The notes beneath the pieces are model-generated. The model was not told where the DNA came from, made no database searches, and saw nothing but the letters and a program-made list of their open reading frames with translations. DNA of 64,000 bases, from positions 19,725-83,724 of the forward strand of contig JAWLCD010000004.1 in the NCBI GenBank assembly GCA_041687355.1, written 5' to 3'. The DNA is from Clostridia bacterium (GTDB lineage: Bacteria > Bacillota > Clostridia > Acetivibrionales > UBA4821). Positions 35,893-52,329 of the stretch are shown here, in pieces. A program made the translations under genes and the position numbers. Positions within the stretch are counted from its first letter, which is position 1. The number at the start of each line of letters is the position of its first letter.

Positions 35893-35897
35893 TTTAT

Positions 35898-37703
35898 TTA
35901 TCTTAATACCAGTTTCCCATCAACTATTCTTGCATATATATCGGTTTCTGTATCTATAAACCTGTGTGTGAAGGCTCCAACTTTTATAATATTGTCGTTG
36001 TATATTCTTTTTATCTTGATTACTCCGTTGGGTGGTACTGATATGGTAGTAGGCACGCCCATTTCCGAGCCAACCTGATTAACCTCAATCATTTTCTCAG
36101 AGTGAATGACCGAGCCCCTGACTACACCGTTAATGAGGATTTTATCATTTGCCCTAATGTCGCAGTTGAAGCATCCTTTTTCAGTAATCTTAACGCAGCC
36201 TCTGGCATTGATTTCAGAGTTTGCAGCATACATGAGGATTATATCTCCTTCAACTATGGTATCGTCCTGTGTATAGTATGTAAGTCCGTTTAGTATAGCC
36301 TTTACCTTATATAGCTGTTCAATGGTTTTTACGGCGCTGCAGTTTCCGAGGAATATCTTCAAAGCTGAGATGAGCTGGTCTCTTTTTTCAATCAGGCAGT
36401 CATACTGATTGGTTTTGAGCGCCACGATGAAAGCGTATATATCCTGGGGAAGCTTATGGTATTTGGAGTTTAGAAGCTCCTTAACCTTTGGGCCTATTCC
36501 ATCGGGGTATACAGTATTTACAAGCTTATCCTTGCAGGAATTTTCAATTTCCTGAATAATCAGGTCAATTGATTCTGTGATGGGTAGTATGTCCTCGCCG
36601 GGGTCTCTGATTATTATATTCCTATTGCCTGATTCAACCTTGCTCGAGATAACATTGCCGCTTATTGCAACGCTGTTCCCGGATTTAATTTCTGCAAAGT
36701 GGGAATCACCTTTTACATAAATGCTGCCTTTTGCCTGGACTTCCATTGCTTCTTTCACATTGCCGTTTACTATGACGTTGCCTTTGAATTTTATATTACC
36801 GCGCTTGATGTCAACATCGCCGTTTATTTCAAGCTTTTCGTTAATATTGATAGAAACTGCAGTTTCGCTTTTAACAGCTTCAGCCTTGCCGGCCTTTATA
36901 CAGCGAGCAATCTTACCATTCTCTTCAATTATGACTCCATCTCCGTCACAAAGCCGAATATCCTTCGGCATGGGAGTCTTAATGAGCTTCCCGGTTACTG
37001 TAATGCCATCTGCGCCCGGTTTCATGGGATGCTTGACAGCCAGTACATCACCAATGCCAGAACTCTTATAGTCAATAAAGTTCCTGAAGTCAACTCTTCC
37101 GGCTTCATCTTCGTTTAGATTGATTTCGAATTTTTCCTGGCTGAACATGTATTCAATCCAAGCGTCTTCAGGAGGGGTGACCTGTGTGCCGCGAGCAGCG
37201 ATTATATATTTATCTTCATACGTGCTGCATGCTTGTTTGATATTCTCTTCTATTATACCGGTTGTAATACCGTGTTTTTCAAGTGCGCTATATATCTTTT
37301 CTTCAGAGATATATCCGACATTCTCAATTACTTCAAGAGCTTTAAGCTCTAATAGGTTGGAGGGTTCACAATCAAGGACTTCATATCGAGATATTCTGGC
37401 TGGGATTGTATGCAGGACAGCTTCCATTTCGTCTTCAGAAATTTTTATTTCGATAAGCTCTTCACGTATGATAGTTTCAGGCTTGATTTCAATTACATCA
37501 TCCTTACCAGGAACAACCAGATGGCTGCATTCCATACCGTTGATAACCAACTTGACCCCTTCGCAAGGGTTGATTGCCGGTGGAAGGCCAAGACCGCTTT
37601 CGCTGGTGAAGTCAACCTTTCTGTTTTTTATCCAGACCTGACCATCCAGTTTTTCCTGCTTATTTATTTTGGAAGATTCGGAATAGCTTAGCATTTTCAT
37701 CAA
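35898..37703 (-). CDS. FapA-family (DUF342) protein
   Basis: 601 aa; repetitive beta-helix-like segment (GNIKFKGNVIVNGNVKEAMEVQAKGSIYVKGD...ISGNVISSKVESG) typical of DUF342; assignment by pattern only. Confidence 0.45.
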   Translation of the reverse strand: MMKMLSYSESSKINKQEKLDGQVWIKNRKVDFTSESGLGLPPAINPCEGVKLVINGMECSHLVVPGKDDVIEIKPETIIREELIEIKISEDEMEAVLHTIPARISRYEVLDCEPSNLLELKALEVIENVGYISEEKIYSALEKHGITTGIIEENIKQACSTYEDKYIIAARGTQVTPPEDAWIEYMFSQEKFEINLNEDEAGRVDFRNFIDYKSSGIGDVLAVKHPMKPGADGITVTGKLIKTPMPKDIRLCDGDGVIIEENGKIARCIKAGKAEAVKSETAVSININEKLEINGDVDIKRGNIKFKGNVIVNGNVKEAMEVQAKGSIYVKGDSHFAEIKSGNSVAISGNVISSKVESGNRNIIIRDPGEDILPITESIDLIIQEIENSCKDKLVNTVYPDGIGPKVKELLNSKYHKLPQDIYAFIVALKTNQYDCLIEKRDQLISALKIFLGNCSAVKTIEQLYKVKAILNGLTYYTQDDTIVEGDIILMYAANSEINARGCVKITEKGCFNCDIRANDKILINGVVRGSVIHSEKMIEVNQVGSEMGVPTTISVPPNGVIKIKRIYNDNIIKVGAFTHRFIDTETDIYARIVDGKLVLR

Positions 37704-37965
37704 CCTCCATATCTTTGCTCAAGCTATTTTTGTTCTCATAATATATATCGGTATAGCAAATAAATTGAATAAGATCTTTTTATGTGAACGTTGGAAATAT
37801 AGGATGACGATTGAAATAATACCATCTAAAAAATGTTTATAAAGGAAGGAAAAAAACTCAATTTGTCGAATATATATATATATAATTTTCTTATGGATTA
37901 GAAGATGATGAAAGGCTCTTTTGAGTTAAGAAACAATAAGTTGATTGAAAAGGAGAGAGTTTCAA

Positions 37966-39768
37966 GTGAGAATAGTAAGAAGAGGAACTATGGTTATAAT
38001 TCTTGTACTGGTACTAATGCTTGCCTCAGTAATTTCTAATGCAAATGCACAAAACAGCCCGGATTTAGAGGAAGAAATAGCAGTTCTGCTGACAGAGATA
38101 GGTTTGTTAAAAGGAGACCAGGACGGCAATCTGATGCTGGATAATAAGCTGACCAGGGAACAGATGGTAGTTATTATAAGCCGTTTAAAAAACGTTGAAG
38201 ATGAGGCAAGAGTATATCCGGTTGACGGCATAAAGTTTAAAGATGTGCCTGAACAGGGTGAGTATAAACATTATATAGCATGGGCCCAAGGAAATAAAAT
38301 TATTTTGGGTTACAGCAGTGAAAGATTTGGCTTTAAAGACTACTTAACCGGGTGGCAGGCAAAGGCTATACTTGTCAGAACATTGGGATACACAGAGACA
38401 TCCGATGAAGACATGAATAATAAAGCTGATGAACTGGGTATTACCACTGGCGTGCATTTTGATGACGATACTCCTATTATGCGGAGAACTATGGCGGTTT
38501 TGATGTATAATTCTTTATTTGCAAAAACCAGTGAAGGTAAAATACTTGGTGAAGAGTTGGGCATAGGAGAGGAAATACTGAAAAACAGAAAAACAGGAAA
38601 GGTTGTTGAAAGAGAAGCATCTGTAAGGCAGGACGGCTGGGTTTACTATAAGAACACGGAGGATGGAAATAAGCTGTATAAGGCAAGAGAAGATGGCAGC
38701 ACCGTCACTAAGCTTGATGATGGCGAGGTTAATTGTCTGGATGTTTCAGAAGGATGGGTTTATTTCAGCAGTAAGTCAGACCAGGATAAGCTGTATAAGA
38801 TAAGTATAAATGGGGTAGGCAAGGTCAAGCTTGGAGATTATGCATGTGACTATATTGATGTATATGGTGACTGGATATACTTCATAAACAAGTCGGATTA
38901 CAGCAAGATATACAGAATGAAGCTGGATGGAACAGGCGGAGCCGTAATCAGCCAGGACTCCGGATTATACTTACGGGTTCAGGGAGACTGGGTTTACTAT
39001 AGAAATGTTTTAGACAGCGGTAAGCTGTATAGGATAAATGTCAATGGAAGCGGAAGAATGAAGATAGTTGACGACCAGGCTTTATATATAACCGTCTCGG
39101 GAGATTGGATTCAATATACTGCTGCAGATGAGGGAAGCCTGACAAGGTATATGGTCAGAACTGACGGTACAGGTAAGAAGAAGATAAGTAAAAATCCGAT
39201 GTCAATAGTAACTGAAAACTATGATGAAGACATAAAAGAGCAGGCAGCCGCCAAGGCCGGCCTGGAAGAGTATACTGTTGAGAATCTGGATATTGAGGGC
39301 GATTGGATTTACTACAGCAATGCAGATGATGGCGGCAAGTTATACAAGGTAAAAACGGACGGAACCGGTAATGCCAAGGTAGATGACGATGAATGCAGTT
39401 TTATAGATGCAGACCAAGAGTGGATATATTTTGTCAGCAAATCGGATTACGGAAGGATATACAGGATAAGACCGGACGGCACGGATAAGGATTCTTTAAA
39501 CAGGGACTATAGTGCCTTCATGTGCTTGCACGACGGTTGGATTTATTACAGGAACCTGATGGACGAGCAGAGGGTATACAGGATGGGAGCAGACGGTGAA
39601 AACAGAGCAATGTTTATTGATGAACAGGCACTGTTTGTTAATATAATAGATGATTGGGTTTATTATAATGTTTCTGAGGGAAACAGCCTAACTGCATATA
39701 AAATGAAGCTTGACGGCACCGGTAGAGTCAGAATAACCCAAGATCCGCTTCTAATAAATGTGGATTGA
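37966..39768 (+). CDS. Secreted SLH-like domain protein with nine DUF5050-type beta-propeller repeats (5 + 4)
   Basis: Signal peptide (VRIVRRGTMVIILVLVLMLASVISNANA, GTG start with AAAGGAGAG 8 nt upstream); SLH-like segments; repeated [DG]W[VI]Y[YF]-x6-9-[LI]Y[KR]-x4-DG[ST]. Confidence 0.6.
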   Translation: MRIVRRGTMVIILVLVLMLASVISNANAQNSPDLEEEIAVLLTEIGLLKGDQDGNLMLDNKLTREQMVVIISRLKNVEDEARVYPVDGIKFKDVPEQGEYKHYIAWAQGNKIILGYSSERFGFKDYLTGWQAKAILVRTLGYTETSDEDMNNKADELGITTGVHFDDDTPIMRRTMAVLMYNSLFAKTSEGKILGEELGIGEEILKNRKTGKVVEREASVRQDGWVYYKNTEDGNKLYKAREDGSTVTKLDDGEVNCLDVSEGWVYFSSKSDQDKLYKISINGVGKVKLGDYACDYIDVYGDWIYFINKSDYSKIYRMKLDGTGGAVISQDSGLYLRVQGDWVYYRNVLDSGKLYRINVNGSGRMKIVDDQALYITVSGDWIQYTAADEGSLTRYMVRTDGTGKKKISKNPMSIVTENYDEDIKEQAAAKAGLEEYTVENLDIEGDWIYYSNADDGGKLYKVKTDGTGNAKVDDDECSFIDADQEWIYFVSKSDYGRIYRIRPDGTDKDSLNRDYSAFMCLHDGWIYYRNLMDEQRVYRMGADGENRAMFIDEQALFVNIIDDWVYYNVSEGNSLTAYKMKLDGTGRVRITQDPLLINVD

Positions 39769-39823: not shown

Positions 39824-41227
39824 ATGCAGATGGCTGGTTTGGAAGAACTAATATGGAGTCTACGCGCCAAGTCCATAAGGATTCATTCTTACGACCAAGG
39901 CACTGAAGGCAGAGAATGCATTATAAACATGTTTATTAATAGTTCGGATATTCCTGGATGGGAGAACCTTATAGAACGTTTGAATGCAGTCTTCGGGAAC
40001 CCCTATCGGTTTGTTGCGCAGAAAGTAAATTCTTCGGATGAGGCATTATGCACCCTGGCACTGGGGGCAAGTTCCGATTCCCAAAAGACAGAAAGAGAAG
40101 TGGAAATCCTGGCTCAGGCTGTTATAAATAATGAATTTAAACTTTACCCCGCCTGCAGCAATAAGGTGTTTGACATCAAACTAGGTATCAGCTGCAACAA
40201 TAACTGCACTCACTGTGTAATCAAGCCTAATGTCCGCAATATTAAGAAGCAGTATCCCGAGAGTGTAATACTGGATTCAGGGACAGGCATGCAGTGTTCT
40301 CGTGACCTCAGTTTTCCCGGGGTAATTGATATACTTGGAAAAACTTCTGATGTGGGTACCTTTGTCTTAACGGGAGGAGAGCCAACCATAAGAAAGGATT
40401 TTCCGAACATCATCAAGTGGATATACTTTAACAGGCCACATGCAGAAATTACGTTGCAAACAAATGGGAGAAACCTTTCCGACAAAGGGCTGGTAAGAGC
40501 CATAAGAAGGTATACAAGGAATCCCTCGTTTGCGGTAGCAATACACGGACTGGAGGAAACGCATAACAGCATAGTCAATAACAGAAAAGAGGCCGGAAAT
40601 CCTTTTAAGGAGACTGCCGAGGGAATCAGGAATCTTATCGAAGTATTCGACAGTACCAAATCCGTAAGGACGGAGATGGTCCTGACAAATCAAAACATAA
40701 ATGATGCTGTCGATGCGTTAAAATTTCAATATGAAAAGTTAGGAGTAAGGCTTGCAGGAGTATCATATCCTCACTTTTCAGGATTCCCCCGTAAAGATAT
40801 TAAGAAACTGGCTCCGGACTTGTCTAAGGTTCTAGGCATCTTGGATGAACTCAATAAGTACGCCGCAAGCTGCGGCGACTTATCGATATTTATTGAAGAG
40901 GTTCCTTTCTGCGTATTTAATCAATTGGAGGGTGAGATAGTTCTCAGGAGCTTTGAGAACAGGAACCGGAGGGGTTCGATTCTTAATTTTATGGGCAGCC
41001 AGAATGATGATTTTCATACGTGCTGGGTCAGGGAACATGCAAAATTCAGAGTGTGTAAGGATTGTGTAATAAACAATGAATGCCTTGGCATATGGCAGGA
41101 AAGCCGGGACGGTAACGAAAAGCATGTTGTACCCATATCAAATATAACGCCCAATATGGGAAGGTTCTTGAAGGTAAACTGGGGATGCGAATACCGTCAA
41201 AATGATTGTAGCATCGGAGGAGAGTAA
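39824..41227 (+). CDS. Radical SAM enzyme 1 with about 120-aa N-terminal extension and Cys-rich (degenerate SPASM/twitch-like) C-terminus
   Basis: CNNNCTHC (nt 40193-40216), LTGGEPT; C-terminal CKDCVINNEC (Cx2Cx5C) plus further Cys; alternative ATG 39830. Confidence 0.8.
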   Translation: MQMAGLEELIWSLRAKSIRIHSYDQGTEGRECIINMFINSSDIPGWENLIERLNAVFGNPYRFVAQKVNSSDEALCTLALGASSDSQKTEREVEILAQAVINNEFKLYPACSNKVFDIKLGISCNNNCTHCVIKPNVRNIKKQYPESVILDSGTGMQCSRDLSFPGVIDILGKTSDVGTFVLTGGEPTIRKDFPNIIKWIYFNRPHAEITLQTNGRNLSDKGLVRAIRRYTRNPSFAVAIHGLEETHNSIVNNRKEAGNPFKETAEGIRNLIEVFDSTKSVRTEMVLTNQNINDAVDALKFQYEKLGVRLAGVSYPHFSGFPRKDIKKLAPDLSKVLGILDELNKYAASCGDLSIFIEEVPFCVFNQLEGEIVLRSFENRNRRGSILNFMGSQNDDFHTCWVREHAKFRVCKDCVINNECLGIWQESRDGNEKHVVPISNITPNMGRFLKVNWGCEYRQNDCSIGGE

Positions 41228-41229
41228 AG

Positions 41230-42999
41230 ATGAAAGATATAAAAACTAAGATTTTAGCCTTCTTAAAAAAAGAGAGAATTCCGGTTCTATACTTCAAGGA
41301 TGCTCAGCTCAAGGACCTGATTTTCGAGCAAAAGGCGGAGCTTGCCTTAAAAGTGGATGAGGAAGATATGCCTAAGTGGAGGTGCTTTACAGAAAAACTC
41401 AACTGCAGCGGCAAGGCAGCCGGTATGGCTTATTTTGACGGTATTCTGAAGTTCGTATTCGAGGGGACGGATGATGAATGTGAAGAGGGATTGCTGGACC
41501 GCAGCCTGGAAAGCTTCCATAATGCTCTTCAGAAGAGATATTTTACTGTTTGCCCAAAGGTTAAGTCATTCTCAGTTCTTATAAAACCGACTCACAGGTG
41601 CAATCTCGACTGCAAGTATTGTTATGATAAGCCCTATAGAGACAGAATAAAGGAAGATATGTCCATGGAAGTCCTGGACAGGACCTTGAAGCTTCTTTCT
41701 CAATACGCCGAGGAGGTTAATATTATTTGGCATGGCGGAGAGCCGACAATGGTTGAGACTGAGTGGTATAAGAATGCCTATGATAATATATTTACAAAGT
41801 ATCCAATGACCTCTTTTAAATCTAATTTGATGTCAAATGGGGTTAATTTTAATGATGAGTGGTTGGATTTATTTAAAAAATATAATATAGAAGCAGGAGT
41901 CAGCTACAATTCTTTATACCAATCCCAATTAAGGTGTTCAAATCAAAAGGCAAAAAGCAGGAGTAAGGATTTCAAAATCATGCAAAAAATTGAAAATACT
42001 TTGATTAAAGCAAATAAAAAAAAATTTAAGATTGGAGTAATTGATGTTATTACCTCGCTGAATTATAAAGACCAGATTCAGATATACGAGTACTATAAAA
42101 ACCTTGGCCTCCATGCTTGCATGAACCATATTTTTCATACACCGCAGACAGAAAGGAATAAACTTGAGATTTCTGCCCAAGAGTATGCGGAGGAATTTCT
42201 AAAGTACTTTAAATATTGGCTGTTTGATAAGAATGGTGTACCTGAAAGGTCTGCAGAGGAAGCGCTGGCAACTGTTATTGGCTCAGGAAAGATAACCTGC
42301 AAGCATAACGACTGCAGGTACAAGTGGCTGGGAATTAATCCTTTGGGAGAAATATACCCCTGTGACAGGTATTATCCTGAAAAATATAGAACCGGTACGG
42401 TTTTTGACTTTGATTGTATTGAAGATGTCTTCAACAGCCAGGCTTATAAAACATATGCGGATGAGGTGCAGAAACGGTTTGACACCAAGTGCAGGGAATG
42501 CGGCTATTGGTTTGCGTGCAAGGGAGGCTGCAACGGCTCTGCATATGAATCATCAGGGAGCATGGAAGGGGTTGAGGAATTCGCCTGTCAATCATTCAGA
42601 CTGAAATATAACGGAATATATGATATTCTTAGAGACTTGGACTGGATTGACAATAAAGAATTGAATCCTGCAGCGCGAAGAATGTTTATTGAAAAGCCGT
42701 TTTACAGTGTGAAGGAAATAAGGCAGTTCATGGAAGAGGCGGGAAAGCAGTTTGAACTTACTTATGACAAGGATAATCTTTTGGGGTGTTCAGAACATCA
42801 GGTTTTCAGAGGCGTGAACTATATGTACGATAACCAGAAATTTGGGATGCATGTAGATTTTATCGATTCTTTTGATGATGATACTGTGAGTATAAATAAA
42901 GAAAAAAGGAGAAATAACCTGGCTAGTTATTTGAAGAAGGTGGCTGTTTATACCTTGAAATCCGGTATAGACAGTTGCCGGGAGGTGAAGGGATGCTGA
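41230..42999 (+). CDS. Radical SAM / SPASM-domain enzyme 2 with about 120-aa N-terminal extension
   Basis: CNLDCKYC (41599-41622), WHGGEPT, GINPLGEIYPC, canonical SPASM CRECGYWFACKGGC (42490-42531); start 2 nt after the upstream stop with GGAGGA RBS. Confidence 0.85.
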   Translation: MKDIKTKILAFLKKERIPVLYFKDAQLKDLIFEQKAELALKVDEEDMPKWRCFTEKLNCSGKAAGMAYFDGILKFVFEGTDDECEEGLLDRSLESFHNALQKRYFTVCPKVKSFSVLIKPTHRCNLDCKYCYDKPYRDRIKEDMSMEVLDRTLKLLSQYAEEVNIIWHGGEPTMVETEWYKNAYDNIFTKYPMTSFKSNLMSNGVNFNDEWLDLFKKYNIEAGVSYNSLYQSQLRCSNQKAKSRSKDFKIMQKIENTLIKANKKKFKIGVIDVITSLNYKDQIQIYEYYKNLGLHACMNHIFHTPQTERNKLEISAQEYAEEFLKYFKYWLFDKNGVPERSAEEALATVIGSGKITCKHNDCRYKWLGINPLGEIYPCDRYYPEKYRTGTVFDFDCIEDVFNSQAYKTYADEVQKRFDTKCRECGYWFACKGGCNGSAYESSGSMEGVEEFACQSFRLKYNGIYDILRDLDWIDNKELNPAARRMFIEKPFYSVKEIRQFMEEAGKQFELTYDKDNLLGCSEHQVFRGVNYMYDNQKFGMHVDFIDSFDDDTVSINKEKRRNNLASYLKKVAVYTLKSGIDSCREVKGC

Positions 43000-45050
43000 C
43001 ATATAATAATTCATTCATGTTTGACAGCTTTGCTCTAATGACTGCAGTTAATATGGACATATTTCAGAACTTCGCTGTGGTAGCTTCGTTTGATACCCAG
43101 GCGTGGCAGGATTTTATTGACGAGACAAGGGAATATGAGCGTACACAGCCGCAAACGCTTATTATTAATACTCATGTGAATGTGGACAACCACGTCAACC
43201 ATATACAGCATGAGAATACCAGCAGTCATTCAAATACCGGTGGCGTACATACAAACGCTACACCTCACACGGATAATATCGTGCATAACAACAACTTTGA
43301 TACGCATTCAAACTATACAATACCGCATTTTAATCTTCCTGCATCGCATTTGAATATGCACTTTAATTCTGGCTTCTCGTGGATGGGGAATCACTCAAAC
43401 ACACATTACGATACCGTATTTTCCCCTCACCAAAATGTACCCAGAGACCATGCAAACGGTCCTATACATACAGACAAACCTAACCACAACAATGAAACGC
43501 CACATACAAATAATACTACTCCGCATTCAAATACTACCCCTCATAACAATAGTTCTCCACACGACAATACCGGAGCGCATAACGATACAGGATTCGACCA
43601 TCAGAACTATGTTCCGTCCAAACCGGCCTTATTTGACATGAGTCCTGATAAAAGGTTGTCGGGAACGGTAACTATAGGTATGTACAGCTATGACAGGAAT
43701 GCCGATGGCAGCGGCTCGCAGAGCCAGGCAAGCAAGGAGGTAAGGTATGATTTATTCATACGGAAAACCAAGAAATCAGACGGTACGGCTGATGTATCCG
43801 GTTGGAGAACCCTTCTCAATAACAGCCTGCAGGATGCAAATGCAGGAAAAACATATGACCTTAATACTATAGACCCTCTAGGGACAGGCAATACAAATCC
43901 GGCAGCCACGGAAGGATACTATGAATTGAAGGCTGTAGCAAGGAATATACCTATAAACGGCGTTACATTCAACAGCCAGGAGCAAGTTCTGCAGGTAATA
44001 ATACAGCAGAATCAAGAGCCTGAGGTATCTGTAAGTAACGGGGACGAGGTTATAAGCTTTACTTTCAGTAAACTTGGCCGGCTTTCCCCAGACGGAATGA
44101 CATACAGTGATTACAGCCCTTCCCTGTATTCAGACCCGTACTCTGCGCAGCAGAACAAATACAGCGGCATATTTGTAGTTGTAAGAATGAAGGATGCAGA
44201 TATGGCCAATTGGCAAAAGGGGAAGGCATACCTTAAGGATTCGGGTGGAAATGTGATTGCAGAAACTGATATCATGTGGTCCGAATTACCAAGTGATGCA
44301 GGTTCGGTTATAACTGCTTCAGATAACATTGAGAAAAAAGGATATGTATTTTTAAGTAAGGACTCTTTGCCGGATGATACAATAATTCAGGATGCAGTTA
44401 TCCGGATTGAGGTTGCCGATTATTATGATGCAGCCTGCACACAACCAACCGGTGATGTGACCGTAAGGGAAACAATTTCTAAGACCGACAGCACCATTTT
44501 GTATGTTGACATTGATACAGAAGCAAAAGCAGAAATACAGCATTTTACAGACCGCGTAACGGGTGCAAATAATTGGCTGGACGCCGATATTGCTGCGGGC
44601 AAATTGACCGAAGAAGAGGCCAACGAACTAAATACATATTTCCCTAATTCAGAGGTGGTATGCAAGTTTGAGATTAATCCTTCAGGCAGTACTTACCAAA
44701 AATATAAGGTAAACTTTAATGCAAATATAGACAATACAAGTGAAATAGGAATAGATTATATAAAATTAGTAAAGGTTGATATTGGAAGTAATTCGACACA
44801 TTCGGAGAATCCTCCGATAAATCAATCTCTAAACTCTTACACATTGGATTTTGAAATATCAAATCCTCAGGATAAAACGGTAACGGCATATATCAAGTAT
44901 AAATTCAGGAATAATGTAAGCGACTCAGTAATCAAGCAGTTTACAAGCAGAATAGCAGTTACGCCGGTTAGAAGTGACGGAACAGATGATACAACAGTAA
45001 ACAGCACAAATATAATCCGCTTCAGAAATACTGATGTCCAATATCGCTAG
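42993..45050 (+). CDS. 685-aa protein with an N-terminal His-x-Asn/Asp repeat region (putative radical-SAM substrate) and a large beta-rich C-terminal part; no signal peptide, no Cys in the repeat region
   Basis: ATG 42993 (GGAGG 7 nt upstream) overlaps the upstream stop (ATGCTGA). In 43173-43607 there are 24 His: 19 H-x-N, 4 H-x-D and 1 H-x-Q. The distal part is hexapeptide-periodic (TPHTNN TTPHSN TTPHNN SSPHDN TGAHND). Confidence 0.75.
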   Translation: MLTYNNSFMFDSFALMTAVNMDIFQNFAVVASFDTQAWQDFIDETREYERTQPQTLIINTHVNVDNHVNHIQHENTSSHSNTGGVHTNATPHTDNIVHNNNFDTHSNYTIPHFNLPASHLNMHFNSGFSWMGNHSNTHYDTVFSPHQNVPRDHANGPIHTDKPNHNNETPHTNNTTPHSNTTPHNNSSPHDNTGAHNDTGFDHQNYVPSKPALFDMSPDKRLSGTVTIGMYSYDRNADGSGSQSQASKEVRYDLFIRKTKKSDGTADVSGWRTLLNNSLQDANAGKTYDLNTIDPLGTGNTNPAATEGYYELKAVARNIPINGVTFNSQEQVLQVIIQQNQEPEVSVSNGDEVISFTFSKLGRLSPDGMTYSDYSPSLYSDPYSAQQNKYSGIFVVVRMKDADMANWQKGKAYLKDSGGNVIAETDIMWSELPSDAGSVITASDNIEKKGYVFLSKDSLPDDTIIQDAVIRIEVADYYDAACTQPTGDVTVRETISKTDSTILYVDIDTEAKAEIQHFTDRVTGANNWLDADIAAGKLTEEEANELNTYFPNSEVVCKFEINPSGSTYQKYKVNFNANIDNTSEIGIDYIKLVKVDIGSNSTHSENPPINQSLNSYTLDFEISNPQDKTVTAYIKYKFRNNVSDSVIKQFTSRIAVTPVRSDGTDDTTVNSTNIIRFRNTDVQYR

Positions 45051-45089
45051 AGTATCAAGAATACATAGATTGAAAGGGCAAGAACATAG

Positions 45090-47381
45090 GTGGGGATGAA
45101 TAAAAGGTTCTCAAATACAATATTCAAGTTTTGCAACAGTGTGAGGGTAGCAAAGCTTGGAAAAATGGTCAGCAGAATCAGCCTATATGAAGCTAAGGCT
45201 GCCAAGCTTTCAAATCAGCAGATAAGGGAGGAATTTAAACGGCTGAAAGCCGGAGAGTATAATAAGGAACGAATCAATGACAAAATACTGTCGTATCTAT
45301 TGGCAATGATAGGTGAAGCTTTCTTCAGAATATATAGAATAAGGCCATATAAGGAGCAGTATATATGTGCACTGGCCATGTACCTGGGTTATATTGCTGA
45401 AATGAAATCGGGTGAGGGTAAGTCAACAGTGGCAGTAATTACAGCCATATTATATTCTCTGGACAAGAAAGTCCACATCGTGACTGTGAATGATTATCTG
45501 GCTCAGAGAGACTATGACAGAATGATTTATATATATAGTTTATTTGGTCTCAGCGTAGGGATTAATTCTCGTGGAAGAGCAGACAAGCCGGAACTGTATT
45601 CTTCAGATATAGTTTATACTTCCAGCTCGGAACTGATTTTTGATTACTTGAGAAATGAACTGCTGCCCGAAGCTGATAGAATACAGTTTCCTTTGGAAGC
45701 GGTAATTATTGATGAAATTGACTTTGTGCTCCTTGATAATGCAAATTCAACCTTCTCAGTATCAACGGGGATAGGATATGTTCCTGATGATGAACCTTTT
45801 ATAGTTGCAAAAGAGATATGCTTACTTCTTAAAGGTGTAGAAATATTGAAGCATGAAGAAATACGGGACGATATTGAAGCTAAAGAAGCTCACTATGTTT
45901 ACTGTGCTGCAGACCGTATGGTTTATTTGACCAGATATGGTGTCGTTTTTTTGGAAAACTTCTTCAAACTGAAGTATGCAAGACAAAAGAATCTGGGCCT
46001 TTATAAAAATATTATTGCTATGCTTGAGGCAAACCTGTTTTTTAAAAATGGAAGGGACTATATTGTGAAAGAGGGCAAAGTTGTCCTGATAAACAGGGAA
46101 AACGGACGGTTGATGCCTGATAGCCAGCTAGAAGCAGATTTACATACTGCAATAGAAGTTAAGGAGGAAGTAAGGGTAACTGAAAAAGCGCTGTTGTGCA
46201 GTAGTTTATCATACCAGATTTTTTTTACCAAATACCGAAGTATGGTTGGTATGAGTGGTACAATATATGATGCTATAGAAGAACTTGAGAAAATTTTTAA
46301 TACTCCGATCATAATTATTCCTTTACATAAGGAAGAAAAAAGGGTAGACCATCCAGACCTGTTTTTTTGGAACAACAAAGAGAAGTACGATTATCTTACA
46401 GAATACCTTAAGAATCGCAGCAGTCAGGACCAGCCGGTCCTGGTCATAACAGGTTCCGAGAAACAATCCTATGAGGTGCAGAAACTTTTGGACGATGAGG
46501 GTATTAGCTCCAATCTGCTTAATAATGAAAGCACGTATGAAGAAGCAAGCCTTGTTAAACAAGCAGGAATACACGGAACTATAACGGTTTCAACCAATAT
46601 ATCGGGACGAGGTACGGATATTATCCTTGATGAGAGGGCAAGAGATGCGGGTGGACTTCTGGTGATTGCACTGAACCGCTACACAAGCAGGAGAGTAGAC
46701 AACCAGGTAAGGGGAAGGGCAGGAAGACATGGCGATACAGGTGAATGTATATTTTATGTATCGATGGAGGATGAACTGTTAGGTCATTTGAGTGGCAGGC
46801 ATAAGAAAAAGATGATGGGATTGACAGGCGGAAGATTTGGCAATATAGATGACTATACGGTAAGGGTTAGACTTTCACGTCTGCTGGATAGTATACAGGA
46901 TGATATTCAGGCTGACTTGTTTAGAAACAGGCAGTTGAACTACTACCTTGATGTAGTGCTTGAGAAGCAGAGAAAGATTATATCTGACTGGAAGGAGAAA
47001 CTCAGGGGCAACCACATTAATATTATAACCAGATATTTAAAAGGTAAGGAATTTGACTTAAACAGATTTAAAAAGGTGTTTTCTTACACAGATCACCTTG
47101 ATGTTTCCAAAGAGTTTAATTCCCAGTGTGAAAGGTTAGGCAGGGATTTGTCCGATGGTCTATTAAATAAACTTATTGATTCTCTGGTTAATAGGGAATG
47201 GTTGATATACAGAAAGAATATGGAGGATATAAAAGCTTATCTTCCTTTGTATCGCTTTACTGAGCCCAATCTGTCGGCAGAATATGTTAGAATATGTTTC
47301 AGTCAGCTTAAGGATATGCAGAACACAGTTATGAACTACATAATTGCATACTTTATATCCGCAGAGATTAAAAAGGAGTGA
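45090..47381 (+). CDS. Divergent SecA paralog (accessory SecA2-like ATPase)
   Basis: SecA N-terminus pattern, Walker A MKSGEGKST, VTVNDYLAQRDY, DEIDFVLLD (the canonical DEARTPLIIS is degenerate: DNANSTFSVS), TNISGRGTDI, RGRAGRHGDTGE; start is GTG 45090 or ATG 45096. Confidence 0.75.
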   Translation: MGMNKRFSNTIFKFCNSVRVAKLGKMVSRISLYEAKAAKLSNQQIREEFKRLKAGEYNKERINDKILSYLLAMIGEAFFRIYRIRPYKEQYICALAMYLGYIAEMKSGEGKSTVAVITAILYSLDKKVHIVTVNDYLAQRDYDRMIYIYSLFGLSVGINSRGRADKPELYSSDIVYTSSSELIFDYLRNELLPEADRIQFPLEAVIIDEIDFVLLDNANSTFSVSTGIGYVPDDEPFIVAKEICLLLKGVEILKHEEIRDDIEAKEAHYVYCAADRMVYLTRYGVVFLENFFKLKYARQKNLGLYKNIIAMLEANLFFKNGRDYIVKEGKVVLINRENGRLMPDSQLEADLHTAIEVKEEVRVTEKALLCSSLSYQIFFTKYRSMVGMSGTIYDAIEELEKIFNTPIIIIPLHKEEKRVDHPDLFFWNNKEKYDYLTEYLKNRSSQDQPVLVITGSEKQSYEVQKLLDDEGISSNLLNNESTYEEASLVKQAGIHGTITVSTNISGRGTDIILDERARDAGGLLVIALNRYTSRRVDNQVRGRAGRHGDTGECIFYVSMEDELLGHLSGRHKKKMMGLTGGRFGNIDDYTVRVRLSRLLDSIQDDIQADLFRNRQLNYYLDVVLEKQRKIISDWKEKLRGNHINIITRYLKGKEFDLNRFKKVFSYTDHLDVSKEFNSQCERLGRDLSDGLLNKLIDSLVNREWLIYRKNMEDIKAYLPLYRFTEPNLSAEYVRICFSQLKDMQNTVMNYIIAYFISAEIKKE

Positions 47382-47385: not shown

Positions 47386-49017
47386 ATGAAACTAACCTTT
47401 CTAGGGGCAGCAAGAACAGTTACCGGCTCCTGTTTTCTACTTGAGACCAAAGCAAGGAAAATACTTATTGACTGCGGTCTGTTTCAGGGGCATATAAAGG
47501 AGACCACCCTGAATTGTGAGGACTTTCCCTTCAATCCTTCAGACATTGATTATGTCCTCCTTACCCATGCACATATTGACCACAGTGGCAGGATTCCCAA
47601 ACTTTATGTAGACGGCTTCCAAGGAGAGGTAATTGCGACCAAGGCAGCGGTTGAACTGTGTTCAGTCATGCTTCCGGACAGCGGGCATATCCAGGAGACT
47701 GAGGTTGAATGGATAAATAAAAGGAGGGCAAGGGAGAATAAACATTCCATCAGACCCTTATATACAATGCAGGATGCAGTTGACTGCATAAAGCTATTCA
47801 GAAAGGTCAAGTGCGACCAAGAGATTATATTGGATGAGGGTATTCGTGTAATATACAGGGATTCAGGTCATATGCTTGGCTCTGCAATAATAGAAGTCTG
47901 GGTAAAGGAAGGCAAGAAGGAGACCAAGCTGGTATTTACCGGCGACCTTGGAAACAAAGGGCTTCCAATACTCAAGGATCCAAGTATAGTCAAGGATGCT
48001 GATTATCTCATTATGGAGTCTACATACGGCGACAGGTTGCACGGTGACAATATTGGTAAGGCTGAGAAGTTTTTAAACGCCATTATTGAAACCATAAACA
48101 ACGGGGGCAATGTAATAATACCCTCTTTTGCAGTTGGCAGAACACAGGAGATACTTTATGAACTGCACAAGGATAAGGAAAAGTATGGAGACAGGCTGGA
48201 TGCTTTGAAAAATATACCGGTATTTGTTGACAGTCCCCTGGCTGTGTCTGCTACTGAAATTTTCAGGTCGAATGAGGACTGCTTCGACGAGGAGACCAGA
48301 AACTATATAAGAAATGGGGATAATCCCCTTGACTTCCCGGGACTCAGGTTTACGCGCTCTGCAGATGAGTCCAAAGCACTGAATGACCTTATGGAGAGTG
48401 TGGTCATAATTTCGGCCAGTGGGATGTGTGAAGCCGGAAGAATCAAGCATCACCTGAAGCATAATCTGTGGAAACCGGAGAACACAATTTTATTTGTGGG
48501 ATATCAGGCTCAGGGTACTCTTGGCAGAAGGATACTGGACGGAGCAAAAAAGGTCAGGATTTTTGGCGAGGATATCTCGGTAAATGCCAGAATTGTATCT
48601 ATAGACGGTTTCTCAGGCCATGCCGACCAGCAGGGCCTGATTGAATGGCTCGGATATTTCCGGAAGGGACCTAAGAAGGTATTTCTTGTTCACGGTGAAC
48701 CAGAAGCTCAGAAGTCACTTTCCCGTGAAGTTGAAGAGAAGTACAATATTGAATGTATAATACCTGATAGAGGGGAATCGTTTGATATTGAAGGGGAATC
48801 ATTAGTCAGGAGTGAATTTGAAGCCCTGAAGCAGTCCAAAGAGAAATTTATCAGGCTTTCGGTTGTTGAACAGCTTCATACGCTGAGAGATGAACTTGAT
48901 GAATTGATAGAAATACTCAAAATGGAGTTGAAGGAAGAGAAGGACGACAAGGAGATTTTAGCACTCAACGAGAAACTCCGGAATCTTGAAAGAACAATGG
49001 CTGATGTGTTAAAATAA
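47386..49017 (+). CDS. MBL-fold beta-CASP family nuclease (CPSF73/RNase J-like)
   Basis: THAHIDHSG, beta-CASP and C-terminal GFSGHAD motifs; ATG 47386 with AAGGAG upstream, 4 nt after the SecA-like stop. Confidence 0.75.
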   Translation: MKLTFLGAARTVTGSCFLLETKARKILIDCGLFQGHIKETTLNCEDFPFNPSDIDYVLLTHAHIDHSGRIPKLYVDGFQGEVIATKAAVELCSVMLPDSGHIQETEVEWINKRRARENKHSIRPLYTMQDAVDCIKLFRKVKCDQEIILDEGIRVIYRDSGHMLGSAIIEVWVKEGKKETKLVFTGDLGNKGLPILKDPSIVKDADYLIMESTYGDRLHGDNIGKAEKFLNAIIETINNGGNVIIPSFAVGRTQEILYELHKDKEKYGDRLDALKNIPVFVDSPLAVSATEIFRSNEDCFDEETRNYIRNGDNPLDFPGLRFTRSADESKALNDLMESVVIISASGMCEAGRIKHHLKHNLWKPENTILFVGYQAQGTLGRRILDGAKKVRIFGEDISVNARIVSIDGFSGHADQQGLIEWLGYFRKGPKKVFLVHGEPEAQKSLSREVEEKYNIECIIPDRGESFDIEGESLVRSEFEALKQSKEKFIRLSVVEQLHTLRDELDELIEILKMELKEEKDDKEILALNEKLRNLERTMADVLK

Positions 49018-49041
49018 CAGAAGCAGGGTAAGACATAAGGG

Positions 49042-49653
49042 GTGGTCAATTTGAAACAGAATATAGATAGAAAGAAAAAGAAAATTTCCAAAGAGGAATA
49101 TGCAAAGAGGGTTAATATGATTATAGGAAGCATTGTAGTTTTAATAAGCATTATTCTAATACTGGTAATTTTTTTGAGTTACAGCTCGGGCGGAAACAAA
49201 GCCAATCCACTGACTGACTTTGGCGAAACATCGGTTGTAAGTATAAAGACTGATAAGGGAGATATACTGCTTGCGGTGTATCCTGAATTAATGCCTAAGA
49301 CTGTTGATAATTTCCTTGGATTGGTTGATAAGGGGTTTTATAACAACTTGACCTTTCACAGGGTTGAGGATTGGGTGATTCAAGGTGGAGACCCTAAAGG
49401 GGATGGCACAGGAGGTTCAGAAAAGACCATAGAGCTTGAAACAAACCTCAAGCTGAAAAATACACGAGGCATGGTTGCAATGGCAAGGACTGACGCCCCC
49501 AACTCTGCCACTTCGCAGTTCTATATACTTAAGAAAGATGCTCCGAGCCTTGATGGAAAGTATGCAGTTTTTGGGAAAGTGCTTGCCGGTATGGAGGTAG
49601 TTGACCAAATCCAGCCGGGCAGTGTCATGACCGAGGTCAAGAAGTTAAATTAA
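49042..49653 (+). CDS. Membrane-anchored cyclophilin-type peptidyl-prolyl isomerase
   Basis: N-terminal TM (IIGSIVVLISIILILVIFL) then FHRVEDWVIQGGDPKGDGTGG, SQFYI. Confidence 0.85.
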   Translation: MVNLKQNIDRKKKKISKEEYAKRVNMIIGSIVVLISIILILVIFLSYSSGGNKANPLTDFGETSVVSIKTDKGDILLAVYPELMPKTVDNFLGLVDKGFYNNLTFHRVEDWVIQGGDPKGDGTGGSEKTIELETNLKLKNTRGMVAMARTDAPNSATSQFYILKKDAPSLDGKYAVFGKVLAGMEVVDQIQPGSVMTEVKKLN

Positions 49654-49674
49654 GGCTTTTGCAGGACTATATAC

Positions 49675-49707
49675 AATGAAGCTGGGAGACGAACTCCCAG
49701 CTTCATT
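49675..49707 (+). terminator. Terminator hairpin after the PPIase gene (perfect 14-bp stem)
   Basis: AATGAAGCTGGGAG-ACGAA-CTCCCAGCTTCATT followed by TGG (weak T tract). Confidence 0.6.
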
Positions 49708-49771
49708 TGGCTGTTGACTTTTTGGGTAGTATGTTTTAAAATAATATGTGCGCCTTTTAAGAGGCAGATAC

Positions 49772-49849
49772 GGTGGGTATAGCTCAGGTGGTTAGAGCGC
49801 CAGGTTGTGGCCCTGGAGGCCAAGGGTTCGAGTCCCTTTATTCACCCCA
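49772..49849 (+). tRNA. tRNA-His (GTG), with G-1 and encoded CCA
   Basis: Cloverleaf folded by hand: acceptor GTGGGTA/TATTCAC (two G-U pairs), anticodon arm CCAGG-TTGTGGC-CCTGG, T-arm AAGGG-TTCGAGT-CCCTT. Confidence 0.9.
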
Positions 49850-49928
49850 ACTTCAGAAACTGGATAAGTGGAACATGGAGCCTGGATTTTAGTTCAGTTT
49901 CCATGTTCTAGTTTCCAGGTTCCATTAT

Positions 49929-50004
49929 TGGGATGTAGCCAAGCGGTAAGGCACCAGACTTTGACTCTGGCATTTCGTTGGTTCGAATCCAGCCATCCCA
50001 GCCA
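49929..50004 (+). tRNA. tRNA-Gln (TTG)
   Basis: Acceptor TGGGATG/CATCCCA, anticodon arm CCAGA-CTTTGAC-TCTGG, T-loop GGTTCGAATCC, CCA encoded. Confidence 0.9.
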
Positions 50005-50009
50005 TATTT

Positions 50010-50093
50010 GCGGGCGTGGCGGAATTGGCAGACGCGCTAGACTTAGGATCTAGTATCTCCGATGTGAAGGTTCAAGTCCTTTCGCCCGCACCA
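50010..50093 (+). tRNA. tRNA-Leu (TAG), long variable arm
   Basis: Acceptor GCGGGCG/CGCCCGC, anticodon arm CTAGA-CTTAGGA-TCTAG, variable arm, T-loop GGTTCAAGTCC, CCA encoded. Confidence 0.9.
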
Positions 50094-50095
50094 AC

Positions 50096-50159
50096 ATGAC
50101 AAGGGGACGGGGTTAGTGACAACACCCAGGTGTTGTCACTAACCCCGTCCCCTTGTCAT
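50096..50159. repeat. REP-like palindrome D (about 29-bp perfect stem)
   Basis: ATGACAAGGGGACGGGGTTAGTGACAACA-CCCAGG-TGTTGTCACTAACCCCGTCCCCTTGTCAT; lies between tRNA-Leu and the 3' end of a convergent gene. Confidence 0.85.
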
Positions 50160-50165
50160 GCGGAA

Positions 50166-51038
50166 TTACTTCCAGTAACAGCCGAAGCGGCCCTTTTTCA
50201 TCTCTGCTCCATTTGCAAAGCCGTTTTCCTTACAGCGCTTCAGCATATCGTCAATCCTTTCAACGGCAGCATTACCTTGTTCCTTGGTCATTGAACCATT
50301 GGCAACCATCTTGTTGACCAGTTCCTTCTGAAGATTGGCCATATTCTGAGCGAAATCCGTCAAATCGATTTTCTGCTGGTCAGTAAGCTCTGAAGTGCCA
50401 ATTCCGGGAATGCCCAAAAGGCCAAAGTTATACAAGCCGCCTCTTCCTATTCCCATGTAGTTTCTTGCGCCGCTGTTTTCAAGATTCTCAACCATGGCGT
50501 CGATTTTTTTTGCTGCAGCATCACCCTGAGCTTTGGTTATTAGCCCATTGGCAACCATCTTACTACTAAAATTCTTGTGCAAATCGGTTATTTTTCTGAA
50601 GGTATTATTCAAGTCAGCCTTCTGTTGGTCGGTGAGCTTTGAGGCGTCAATTCTGTTTATACCGAAATCACCCTGCTTTCCATACCCACCCCGATGGCCT
50701 TTTCTCATGCCCATACCGCCTATGGAACCATTTTCTTCCCGGTTTGCAAGTATGTCATCAACCCTTTTGACGGCGGCATCACCTTGTTCCTTGGTCATTG
50801 AACCGTTGGCAACCATCTCGTTAATAAATTCCTTTTTAAGGTCAGCCATCTTTTTGGAGTAATCTTCTACGGCAGCTTTCTGCTTATCAGTAAGCTTTGA
50901 AGTGTCAATCCCCAGGAATCCTTTTACAGTTCTAGCTGCAGTAGTATCAGATGTGGCTGCATAAACTGAAAAAGGAACTGCAATGCCGACGATAATGGTC
51001 AAAAGTATAAGTAGTTTGCTTCTCTTCACTGTATTCAC
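50166..51038 (-). CDS. Secreted protein with three DUF2680 (YckD-like) repeats
   Basis: Signal peptide; three copies of LTD[KQ]QK-x-[DA]-...-KMVANG[SL][MI]TK[EA]QG[DN]AA separated by Gly-rich linkers. Confidence 0.6.
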   Translation of the reverse strand: MNTVKRSKLLILLTIIVGIAVPFSVYAATSDTTAARTVKGFLGIDTSKLTDKQKAAVEDYSKKMADLKKEFINEMVANGSMTKEQGDAAVKRVDDILANREENGSIGGMGMRKGHRGGYGKQGDFGINRIDASKLTDQQKADLNNTFRKITDLHKNFSSKMVANGLITKAQGDAAAKKIDAMVENLENSGARNYMGIGRGGLYNFGLLGIPGIGTSELTDQQKIDLTDFAQNMANLQKELVNKMVANGSMTKEQGNAAVERIDDMLKRCKENGFANGAEMKKGRFGCYWK

Positions 51039-51165
51039 CTCCTTCCGTATTGGATATCTTTATTGTAACCAGAAAATGTATCTAATGTATGTCATAAGTA
51101 TTAAAATACTGTGAACATGTAATTCTTGGATTTAAGCAATAGAATTGGATAAAAAAAGCCGGTGA

Positions 51166-51393
51166 TTAATTATCACCGGATGGATGTATAGATTCAAAGT
51201 CATAAACGTCCGCTTCATCTTCCCTTCTGAAGTAGTAGACGCATCCACAGATCAAAGCAAGAATTCCAACTATTATGAGGAAAATCGAGTACTCGCATAC
51301 TAATGGATGGATAAAATGCATATGCGTGTCTGCAGATGTTTTCCAAACGACCTTCAAAGGTATCACAAAAAGAATAATCAGAAGAGTCTTCAT
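51166..51393 (-). CDS. 75-aa membrane protein, unknown function
   Basis: RBS AAGGGGGAA upstream of the ATG; two hydrophobic helices; stop embedded in terminator CCGGTGAT-AATTA-ATCACCGG + T7 (minus strand, about 51150-51182). Confidence 0.5.
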   Translation of the reverse strand: MKTLLIILFVIPLKVVWKTSADTHMHFIHPLVCEYSIFLIIVGILALICGCVYYFRREDEADVYDFESIHPSGDN

Positions 51394-52162: not shown

Positions 52163-52286
52163 ATTGGATAATATTTTGCTCATTTTGTCATAATTACATA
52201 TCAAACAGCCGAGCGGGCTGTCATAATTCAGGATAAGACCAACCGAATAATCTATTTTAAATTTAACTCCGGCTTAATACAATCAT

Positions 52287-52319: not shown

Positions 52320-52329
52320 CGGCAAAATA

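Follow-up and report, generated by a model that had tools for sequence, protein, structure and literature searches.

What do two radical S-adenosylmethionine (radical-SAM) enzymes, a large histidine-rich repeat protein and a paralog of the export motor SecA do together? The question is raised by four tightly packed genes, ORF1 to ORF4, in a 64,000-nucleotide stretch of a Clostridia bacterium genome (contig JAWLCD010000004.1), the whole of which is referred to here as the window. We analysed these genes and their relatives computationally. Our answer, to which we give about even chances, is that they form a maturation-and-export module for a cell-surface protein. The module is rare yet conserved in anaerobic Clostridia.

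The positions of the genes and of the regions discussed below are collected in Table 1. The initial annotation of the locus had described a 2-nt gap, a 7-nt overlap (ATGCTGA) and a 39-nt gap between the four genes. The first two spacings are exact, whereas the third needs a GTG start for ORF4 at position 45090. Because this GTG sits within a ribosome-binding-site-like GGTGGGG that precedes an ATG at 45096, and because the database copy of the ORF4 protein (P0018) has 761 aa, translation probably begins at ATG 45096, which gives a protein of that length and a gap of 45 nt to ORF3. ORF1 may start at ATG 39830.

Table 1. Genes of the module in the window and regions of the repeat protein
Feature	Positions	Strand	Description
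ORF1	39824-41227	+	467 aa; radical-SAM enzyme, distantly HxsC-like
ORF2	41230-42999	+	589 aa; radical-SAM/SPASM enzyme, anSME/ChlB-like
ORF3	42993-45050	+	685 aa counted from ATG; repeat protein, putative substrate
ORF4	45090-47381	+	763 aa as called; SecA paralog
ORF3 leader-like N-terminal region	42993-43154	+	residues 1-54; family-conserved, no signal peptide
ORF3 repeat core	43155-43601	+	residues 55-203; 22 H-x-[N/D] triplets; presumed radical-SAM target
ORF3 body	43602-45050	+	tandem Ig-like beta-sandwich domains; family-defining domain pair at about 200-520
DUF5050 gene	37945-39768	+	607 aa secreted beta-propeller protein; probable fifth, accessory component

The genes stay together in distant Clostridia

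We inspected 13 related loci, several of which are cut by contig ends. Six were reached through ORF3: L001 (Thermoanaerobacterium butyriciformans), L003 (Thermoanaerobacter sp. RKWS2), L005 (a Clostridia metagenome-assembled genome (MAG), 83% identical to the window), L007 (a Clostridiaceae MAG), L008 (Alkaliphilus transvaalensis) and L009 (a Thermovenabulum MAG). The remaining loci, L010-L016, were reached through the SecA paralog and include L013, a metagenomic locus of the Thermoanaerobacter type. All six distinct loci found through ORF3 encode an ORF2-type enzyme and the SecA paralog within a few kb. The search with the SecA paralog, which was blind to the other genes, led to adjacent radical-SAM genes in six of seven loci (L010 and L012-L016). 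L010, L012 and L013, where the contig allows, encode an ORF3 homolog as well, and in L016 the C-terminus of a truncated 1307-aa protein resembles that of the repeat-protein family member P0011. The module is thus co-conserved in distant Clostridia and Thermoanaerobacterales at 33-55% identity.

The arrangement of the genes within these loci varies. L012 shares the window's chromosomal site (Ack-Pta-FtsK-FapA-DUF5050 ... beta-CASP-cyclophilin), yet its order is SecA, two radical-SAM genes and substrate, as opposed to two radical-SAM genes, substrate and SecA in the window. L005 contains two tandem units, each of two radical-SAM genes and a substrate gene, around a single SecA paralog. The overlap of the ORF2 stop with the ORF3 start recurs in at least six loci (window, L001, L003, L005, L009, and L013). 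The shuffled order, the duplication and the recurrent overlap argue that selection, rather than shared descent, keeps the genes together, and we consider it very probable that they constitute one functional module. The initial annotation had read the four genes as one system, and the set is indeed kept across distant lineages, even where it has been rearranged as in L012.

The extent of four genes, however, is probably too narrow. The gene directly upstream matches Pfam DUF5050 (E 5.5e-74) and encodes a protein with a classical signal peptide (N-terminal hydropathy 3.7) and an SLH-like N-terminal segment. Secreted DUF5050 and/or Cu_amine_oxidN1 proteins accompany nearly all loci, lying within or next to the module in L005 (three copies), L012, L009, L001, L003, L013, and L008. 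The upstream DUF5050 gene therefore probably belongs to the module.

ORF3 encodes aromatic triplets between a conserved leader-like region and Ig-like domains

ORF3 had been described as a protein of 685 aa without a signal peptide and with an extreme H-x-N/D repeat, and the counts bear this out. In the repeat core, 22 of 24 His residues stand in H-x-[N/D], compared to 6.1±1.9 in composition-preserving shuffles, i.e., about 8 standard deviations above. The third residue of the triplet (X3) is N in 18 cases, D in 4 and Q in 1, and never Ser. The His residues are spaced by 6-7 residues, Cys is missing and the region is net acidic (2 K+R versus 11 D+E). At the N-terminus of the protein, the best 11-residue hydropathy is 1.55 as opposed to 3.7 for two secreted or membrane controls, the DUF5050 protein and the cyclophilin encoded downstream of the module; judged by this measure, the protein has no signal peptide. 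The conserved F-[QE]-x-F-A at the N-terminus might suggest a class III signal of the pilin type, but we rejected this reading because the hydrophobic stretch spans only about 8 residues before a polar helix begins.

Pfam and NCBIfam contained no match to ORF3, nor did NCBIfam return one for its N-terminal 215 aa at E<=1; together with PADLOC, these collections place the repeat protein in no characterised family. Its own family is very small: 17 members turned up in a word-indexed search of 5.8 billion proteins, 67 in an exhaustive HMMER scan of 1.84 billion (1.84e9) representatives with the central domain, and 5 loci when 185,579 species genomes were scanned. Family members are 685-2073 aa long. 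Their N-termini, 65 of which were aligned, share the leader consensus ...F-A-phi-x-A-x-F-[DN]...[FW]-x-x-[WF]-[KR]...[EQ]-[RK]...Q-x-L..., in which the conserved Q is present in 56/64, and the first triplet follows directly. The repeat region terminates at a conserved G-F-D-H-x-N-Y-V-P-S motif, beyond which lie two well-predicted beta-sandwich domains and additional Ig-like domains that vary between members. The AlphaFold2 (AF2) model of ORF3 shows a helix at residues 35-50 (predicted local distance difference test score, pLDDT, 78-93), a repeat core predicted to be disordered and a confident segment at residues 200-350 (pLDDT 78-96). Foldseek searches with the model returned just generic tandem Ig/FN3/MG-domain proteins and no functional lead.

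Several homologs carry Big_2, Big_7, fn3, and GBS_Bsp-like domains, and the 2073-aa homolog of Alkaliphilus transvaalensis (P0148) ends in SLH cell-wall anchors. Domains of this type indicate that the proteins of the family are extracellular. A classical signal-peptide-like N-terminus was seen in only 1/74 members. The extracellular destination of a protein lacking a signal peptide, as proposed by the initial annotation, is thus supported.

The repeat itself turned out to be broader than the His-x-Asn unit after which it had been named, which holds for the window protein. Across the 67 representatives, 75-100% of the His residues are followed by x-[N/D/Q]. Several members, however, have Tyr in place of His. 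In P0151, 37/38 Tyr are in Y-x-[N/D] versus 8.7±2.4 in shuffles; P0186 alternates H-T-N with Y-x-R (40/60 Tyr), and P0164 has Y-x-Q triplets. H and Y share columns of the family alignment. Read from these alignments, the conserved unit is aromatic(H/Y)-X-(N/D/Q/R/K) rather than His-x-Asn as such. Two divergent ORF3 paralogs, at L012 15045-16790 and L005 15867-16806, have Lys-rich repeats (K-H-S-Q and H-G-N-H-G-N runs) and are devoid of the first beta-sandwich domain, which bears the G-F-D-H motif. Repeat chemistry and architecture thus appear to drift even inside the window's own clade.

Arrays of His together with Asp or Asn are able to bind divalent metals, and the initial annotation had suggested a metal-binding surface protein. 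The region could accordingly be a disordered stretch of an adhesin that binds metals or acts as a spacer, with the target of the radical-SAM enzymes lying elsewhere, for example in a small peptide, a cofactor or the DUF5050 protein. The disorder predicted by AF2 would suit such a segment, and small unannotated ORFs do occur in some loci, e.g., one of 68 aa between the two radical-SAM genes of L010. However, a conserved small ORF common to the loci was not found. Moreover, the replacement of His by Tyr with X3 kept, as well as the Y-x-R/Q variants, is hard to square with metal binding; the swap favours a cross-link grammar over simple metal binding. All 65 aligned members have the conserved leader directly before the repeats, and the translational coupling of ORF2 and ORF3 recurs across loci. 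We regard a spacer or metal-binding segment as very improbable, and consider it likely that the ORF3 repeat is the radical-SAM substrate.

ORF2 is the common enzyme of the module

In accordance with the initial annotation, ORF2 matches Pfam Radical_SAM and SPASM and contains the motif CX2CX5CX3C; eight Cys are invariant in the SPASM region. An ORF2-type enzyme is encoded in every locus that has an ORF3 homolog. The clade comprises about 92 database clusters, none of which has a specific name. In NCBIfam, ORF2 scored 144.7 bits against the anaerobic sulfatase-maturating enzyme (anSME) model TIGR03942 (cutoff 349.45), 142.3 against DynA, 97.1 against YhhB (cutoff 445), 86.7 against AmcB (425), 81.2 against GrrM (310), 77.4 against FxsB (370), and 47.5 against XyeB (450), all of these being below cutoff. 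These top matches include the cross-link-forming DynA and the cyclophane-forming YhhB, AmcB, GrrM, and FxsB.

The protein consists of a core at about residues 110-470, flanked by an alpha/beta N-terminal domain (1-105) and a helical C-terminal domain (470-589). These extensions of 105 and 120 residues are conserved only within the ORF2 clade. Its AF2 model, built from a 43-sequence alignment, reached a pLDDT of 92.4. Foldseek placed it closest to anSME (TM score 0.75-0.78) and ChlB (TM 0.73-0.77), with SPASM enzymes that carry an RRE domain scoring lower, and ChlB was the sole match in a single-sequence search of the PDB. anSME and ChlB both begin with the abstraction of a C-beta hydrogen from a polypeptide residue. 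anSME (PDB 4K36-4K39), which likewise acts on a protein substrate, is the best match to the ORF2 core by profile and, by a small margin over ChlB, by structure, including two auxiliary clusters, yet ORF2 differs from it in its low score and its terminal extensions. A sulfatase domain was found neither among the scanned window proteins nor among the genes called in the related loci, and ORF3 offers no context for a C/S-x-P-x-R motif. The window scan for sulfatase and Tad domains took in the ORFs up to 15 kb to either side of the module (22900-37703 and 47386-63808) and most of 59-11375 and 16304-22511, while ORFs at, for example, 11645-16088, 20448-20981, and 27120-27692 fell outside it.

The combination of leader, repeats and enzyme recalls the triceptides, peptides in which an aromatic residue is cross-linked to a C-beta atom within Omega1-X2-X3 motifs (PMC11499958). 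His-C2 to X3-C-beta links are formed in HAA by HaaB, in HNR by YhhB and in HTK by HtkB, whereas ChlB acts on a native YDR (PMC11499958). As in these pathways (ChlB, HaaB, YhhB, HtkB, GrrM/OscB, FxsB, XyeB), aromatic-X-X3 motifs follow a leader in the ORF3 family, both His and Tyr are used, and the fold of ORF2 resembles that of ChlB (TM about 0.75), though that of anSME about equally. The module differs from them in its dozens of motifs, in having neither a protease nor an ABC exporter, and in its SecA paralog and Tad-pilus context. Since a leader and Omega-X-X3 triplets with interchangeable H and Y, beside an enzyme of the anSME/ChlB class, match the triceptide grammar, we tentatively propose, by analogy, that the reaction is cyclophane formation.

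ORF1 resembles HxsC, but the module falls outside the HXS systems

ORF1 had been annotated as a radical-SAM enzyme with a SPASM/twitch-like tail. The Radical_SAM assignment stands (E 9.6e-12; CX3CX2C core, preceded by a 110-aa N-terminal domain) and so does the Cys-rich tail, whereas no SPASM or twitch profile matched above cutoff. Among eight homologs, the core Cys C124/C128/C131 and the tail Cys C363/C411/C414/C420 are invariant, and the four tail residues fit one auxiliary cluster. The best NCBIfam match is HxsC (TIGR03977) at 52.8 bits (cutoff 267.9), with 67.5 and 42.1 bits for the L008 homologs; by profile, the closest solved structure to the ORF1 family is SkfB (2.5e-7). The profile searches thus recovered the domain families that had been predicted and put HxsC at the top of the NCBIfam list for ORF1. 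The N-terminal domains of ORF1 and ORF2 could be homologous, as a leader-binding module common to both enzymes; aligned to each other, they gave an hhalign probability of 11% (E 0.0027; common motif D-x-P-[GK]-W...R-x-N). At E<=1, NCBIfam contained nothing for these domains or for the 278-286-aa accessory proteins of L008 and L009.

ORF1 homologs are encoded in L005 (two copies), L007, L008, L009, L010, and L012 but are absent from L001, L003, and L013. L008 has four radical-SAM genes, and L007 has homologs of at least three of those four. The pair of enzymes proposed for the window is therefore real at this locus but not a constant of the module: the ORF2 type alone is universal, the HxsC-like enzyme is missing from the Thermoanaerobacter/Thermoanaerobacterium loci and up to four radical-SAM genes occur elsewhere. 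The ORF2-only loci (L001, L003, and L013) have Asp-dominant triplets (H-x-D 16-23), whereas several of those that also encode the HxsC-like enzyme (window, L005, L007, L008, and L012) are Asn-dominant (H-x-N 10-23), L009 and L010 being mixed. The HxsC-like enzyme may thus be tied to Asn at X3, a correlation that spans about three independent lineages and is phylogenetically confounded. A HemN/HemZ-like radical-SAM gene follows the SecA paralog or its neighbouring radical-SAM gene in L007 (4526-5599), L008 (4497-5564), and L016 (7515-7967). The best NCBIfam match of the L008 copy is the STM4012 family (77 bits), a third enzyme class in some versions of the module.

The similarity to HxsC leads to the His-Xaa-Ser (HXS) systems (HxsA-HxsD; TIGR03977/03978/03979/03976; Nat Commun 2026, PMC13128918), which the initial annotation had named as the closest paradigm. 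In both cases, paired radical-SAM enzymes stand beside a His-x-X repeat protein, and in both, here by inference, a radical-SAM-matured protein leaves the cytoplasm by a non-canonical route. This would allow for an HXS-like system with other chemistry (e.g., +8 Da on a His/Ser motif, or N-terminal processing) that produces an envelope effector against phages or conjugation. In HXS, an effector with His-x-Ser repeats is matured by HxsB and HxsC and gets to the periplasm along a non-canonical path (PMC13128918), HxsC tops the NCBIfam list for the L008 homologs as it does for ORF1, and many of the related loci lie amid mobile-element genes (ParB, SSB, ParM-like, topoisomerase/DUF3945, and restriction genes).

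The differences from HXS are, however, numerous. The scores are 5-8-fold under the HXS cutoffs; ORF2, the sole universal enzyme type, is anSME-like and reached only 43.5 bits against HxsB (TIGR03978, cutoff 370), ranking after about 18 other SPASM families, and the HxsC-like enzyme is dispensable in several loci. HxsD (TIGR03976) and HxsA were unmatched even at E<=1, and no HxsD-type ORF lies between or beside the four genes. X3 is Asn/Asp (or Gln/Arg/Lys) and never Ser, with 22 or more repeats as opposed to five in HXS. The ORF3 repeat is acidic whereas HxsA is basic and DNA-binding, and ORF3 has neither the signal peptide nor the peptidoglycan-binding domain of HxsA. The substrate is instead an Ig-domain protein of 685-2073 aa accompanied by a SecA paralog. 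Furthermore, 99.7% of HXS systems are found in Pseudomonadota (PMC13128918), while the module occurs in Clostridia.

When the four proteins and their two neighbours were run through PADLOC, the only similarity was a generic radical-SAM one at the level of viperin, which lends no support to a known defence system. Relatives of the ORF3 family were found in neither IMG/VR viral contigs, PLSDB plasmids nor INPHARED phages, which leaves the idea of a mobile element resting solely on neighbouring genes in some loci, and the window copy sits at a housekeeping chromosomal site. An HXS-like effector system is thus unlikely in our view. Because the module lies outside HXS on each of these points, HXS is, by profile and architecture, an analogy rather than a family assignment, even though HxsC remains the best match of ORF1.

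ORF4 represents a short SecA subfamily, often found in Tad islands

ORF4 had been called a divergent SecA-like ATPase, and the motor domains are indeed present: Pfam matched SecA_DEAD (1.3e-63), SecA_PP_bind (2.7e-16), and P-loop_SecA (1.2e-44), and the Walker A sequence GEGKS and a DEID box are intact. SecA_SW (PF07516) and SEC-C (PF02810) were not matched. The alignment to residues 52-614 of B. subtilis SecA covers NBD1, PPXD, NBD2, and the start of the scaffold, with a weak match to IRA1/two-helix finger. ORF4 scored 430-469 bits against the housekeeping SecA models TIGR00963/NF009538/NF006630 (cutoffs 800-862) and 420, 414, 322, and 306 bits against the SecA2 models TIGR03714, TIGR04397, TIGR04221, and NF012136 (cutoffs 930, 1085, 725, and 1100), i.e., below every SecA and SecA2 equivalog cutoff. 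The hit list contained about 26 ORF4-type clusters (382-1693 bits, 679-783 aa), in which SecA_SW is absent from all but one and SEC-C from all, followed by a plateau of canonical SecAs of 855-892 aa at about 350 bits. In a neighbour-joining tree without bootstrap support, which is consistent with this picture but not conclusive, the canonical SecAs form one clade that contains no paralog. By score, architecture and this tree, ORF4 appears as a distinct short SecA subfamily, apart from canonical SecA.

A known arrangement close to this one is accessory Sec (SecA2/SecY2 with glycosylated serine-rich-repeat adhesins; SecA2 only in Clostridioides difficile, Listeria, and Mycobacterium), in which a shortened SecA paralog also stands beside a large repeat-rich surface protein. 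In accessory Sec, SecA2 exports cytoplasmically modified repeat adhesins with an atypical N-terminus. The module differs in its SecA subfamily, and its loci, as far as their genes were called, are devoid of SecY2, Asp1-3, and glycosyltransferases and have radical-SAM modification enzymes instead. Full-text searches for a SecA paralog combined with radical-SAM or Tad loci found nothing relevant, and the literature searched contained no description of radical-SAM enzymes together with a private SecA and a signal-less His-x-Asn/Asp surface protein. Overall, the module resembles several known systems but, by its scores against the cutoffs for HXS, the named triceptide maturases, housekeeping SecA, SecA2, and anSME, it is a member of none.

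Sets of Tad/Flp pilus genes (Flp_Fap, TadE/DUF4320, RcpC, CpaE-like, T2SSE, T2SSF, and Peptidase_A24) are present in 10/13 loci, often beside plasmid-type genes or those of integrative and conjugative elements (ICEs). The SecA paralog might therefore be part of a clostridial Tad/Flp island that exports pilus-associated proteins, the radical-SAM and repeat genes being just neighbours whose product takes another route or does not reach the surface. L011 fits this explanation, as its SecA paralog is accompanied by Flp-like pilins but by neither a radical-SAM nor a repeat gene. In contrast, no Tad genes were found in the sequence examined of the window, L005, and L012, where the SecA paralog is the only export-type gene retained and remains tightly packed with the radical-SAM and repeat genes despite rearrangement and duplication. 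Radical-SAM genes directly flank the SecA paralog in L014, L015, and L016, and the repeat proteins require some non-classical export route. An export function confined to the pilus island is, in our judgement, quite unlikely, and we lean slightly towards the SecA paralog exporting ORF3. The word 'dedicated', which the initial annotation had applied to this SecA, may be too strong: outside the window's clade the module lies in Tad islands, and one such island, L011, has the SecA paralog without a substrate gene.

The Tad island of L011 has three tandem Flp-like pilin genes (8017-8730; 60-82 aa, ...KRGSEIIQVLIVIAIMGAVAV...) upstream of the SecA paralog and adjoins a topoisomerase/DUF3945 gene typical of conjugative elements.

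A proposed route from repeat to surface

Taken together, we propose the following sequence of events. ORF3 would be made in the cytoplasm with a leader of about 55 residues, about 22 His-x-Asn/Asp triplets and Ig-like domains. ORF2, translationally coupled to it, would recognise the leader, abstract the C-beta hydrogen from the third residue of each triplet and join that C-beta to the imidazole (or phenol) of the first residue, which would yield a string of three-residue cyclophanes at -2 Da per triplet. ORF1 might add a second, lineage-specific modification. The product, signal-less and not yet folded, would next be recognised by the SecA paralog and exported by it through the general SecYEG channel. 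Outside, the Ig-like body would be displayed on the wall, anchored by SLH domains in some homologs and possibly partnered by the DUF5050 protein, with a Tad/Flp pilus alongside in most relatives. Of this scheme, the linkage of the genes, the grammar of the repeat, the class of the enzymes, the absence of a signal peptide and the domains of extracellular type are observed, whereas which protein is modified, the cross-link, what ORF1 does and export by the SecA paralog are inferred.

Several observations weigh against this proposal. Known triceptide precursors are short peptides, whereas members of the ORF3 family are large proteins with folded Ig-like domains, and ORF2 scores far below all triceptide-family cutoffs and has additional domains at both ends. 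By family profile, ORF2 is much closer to anSME (1e-45) than to ChlB (4e-16), and the fold does not separate the two. The enzyme class thus does not fix the reaction outcome: C-beta oxidation or some other product would suit it just as well as a cyclophane. The ORF3 leader helix is packed confidently in the AF2 model, which might mean a structural role instead of a recognition leader. On the export side, neither a SecY2-like partner nor Asp or glycosyltransferase genes were seen among the called genes of the loci, and L011, the sole exception to the linkage, suggests that the SecA paralog may serve the pilus island generally. Finally, the sample of loci is small, comprising 13 that are partly cut by contig ends.

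To our knowledge, nearly all known cases of side-chain cross-linking by radical-SAM enzymes come from small peptide natural products. HXS provided the first radical-SAM-matured protein effector (PMC13128918). Compared with radical-SAM maturation of an exported His-x-X repeat protein as such, the module would add a protein-scale substrate, a private SecA subfamily and the association with Tad pili. In its strongest form, the proposal amounts to a first protein-scale triceptide, a surface- or pilus-associated family with N-terminal arrays of 10-50 His/Tyr-x-Asn/Asp cyclophanes that is exported without a signal peptide by a third, hitherto unrecognised class of SecA paralog adapted to radical-SAM-modified cargo; this is possible but rather unlikely. 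If true, the module would extend radical-SAM cross-linking to large structural surface proteins and link it with a private SecA motor and, for the majority of lineages, with Tad/Flp pili. The new SecA paralog subfamily would raise the question of how a signal-less, covalently cross-linked chain is chosen for Sec export. The repeat would offer protein engineering a natural scaffold with dozens of enzyme-made cyclophanes, and a function would be found for about 70-90 gene families, so far without a name, of Clostridia that are thermophilic or live in gut or sediment.

Neighbouring genes in the window

Downstream of the SecA paralog, 4 nt past its stop, begins a gene for a beta-CASP metallo-beta-lactamase nuclease (47386-49017), which in NCBIfam scores best against Cas14, a type VII CRISPR protein (458 bits, cutoff 800). 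A membrane-anchored cyclophilin-type peptidyl-prolyl isomerase (PPIase; 49042-49653) is encoded 1.6 kb downstream of the module, as it is in L012. The nuclease and the cyclophilin were considered as members of the module and rejected, since L012 keeps them as syntenic chromosomal neighbours despite its different order of module genes and all other loci lack them. In L003 (3918-4766) and L013 (4084-5004), a PrsA/SurA-type rotamase gene lies directly upstream of the SecA paralog; such PPIase/rotamase neighbours may be extracytoplasmic foldase partners or a coincidence. A cluster of tRNA-His(GTG), tRNA-Gln(TTG), and tRNA-Leu(TAG) genes (49773-50093) follows just downstream of the operon of the His-rich protein, which is probably coincidental.

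Further downstream, beside tRNA-Trp (52330-52404, - strand), a block resembling a conjugative type IV secretion system (T4SS) or ICE extends over 52330-63808. It contains three tandem VirB2/TrbC-like pilin paralogs (52666-53052, 53088-53471, and 53515-53916), a VirB3-like ORF (53988-54350), a VirB4/TraG-type ATPase (55381-57357), a 905-aa membrane protein with a T4SS_pilin match (57358-60075), and a wall hydrolase with glucosaminidase and M23 domains (60115-62823). Upstream of the module, a 946-aa VWA protein (22900-25740) weakly matches the Ca-binding domain of clostridial binary toxin B and anthrax protective antigen (PA); its gene comes after the sporulation genes YtfJ and DUF2953. Between the VWA gene and dapB-dapA-asd lies an ORF for an IS200-like Y1 transposase with a C-terminal helix-turn-helix segment (26318-27133).

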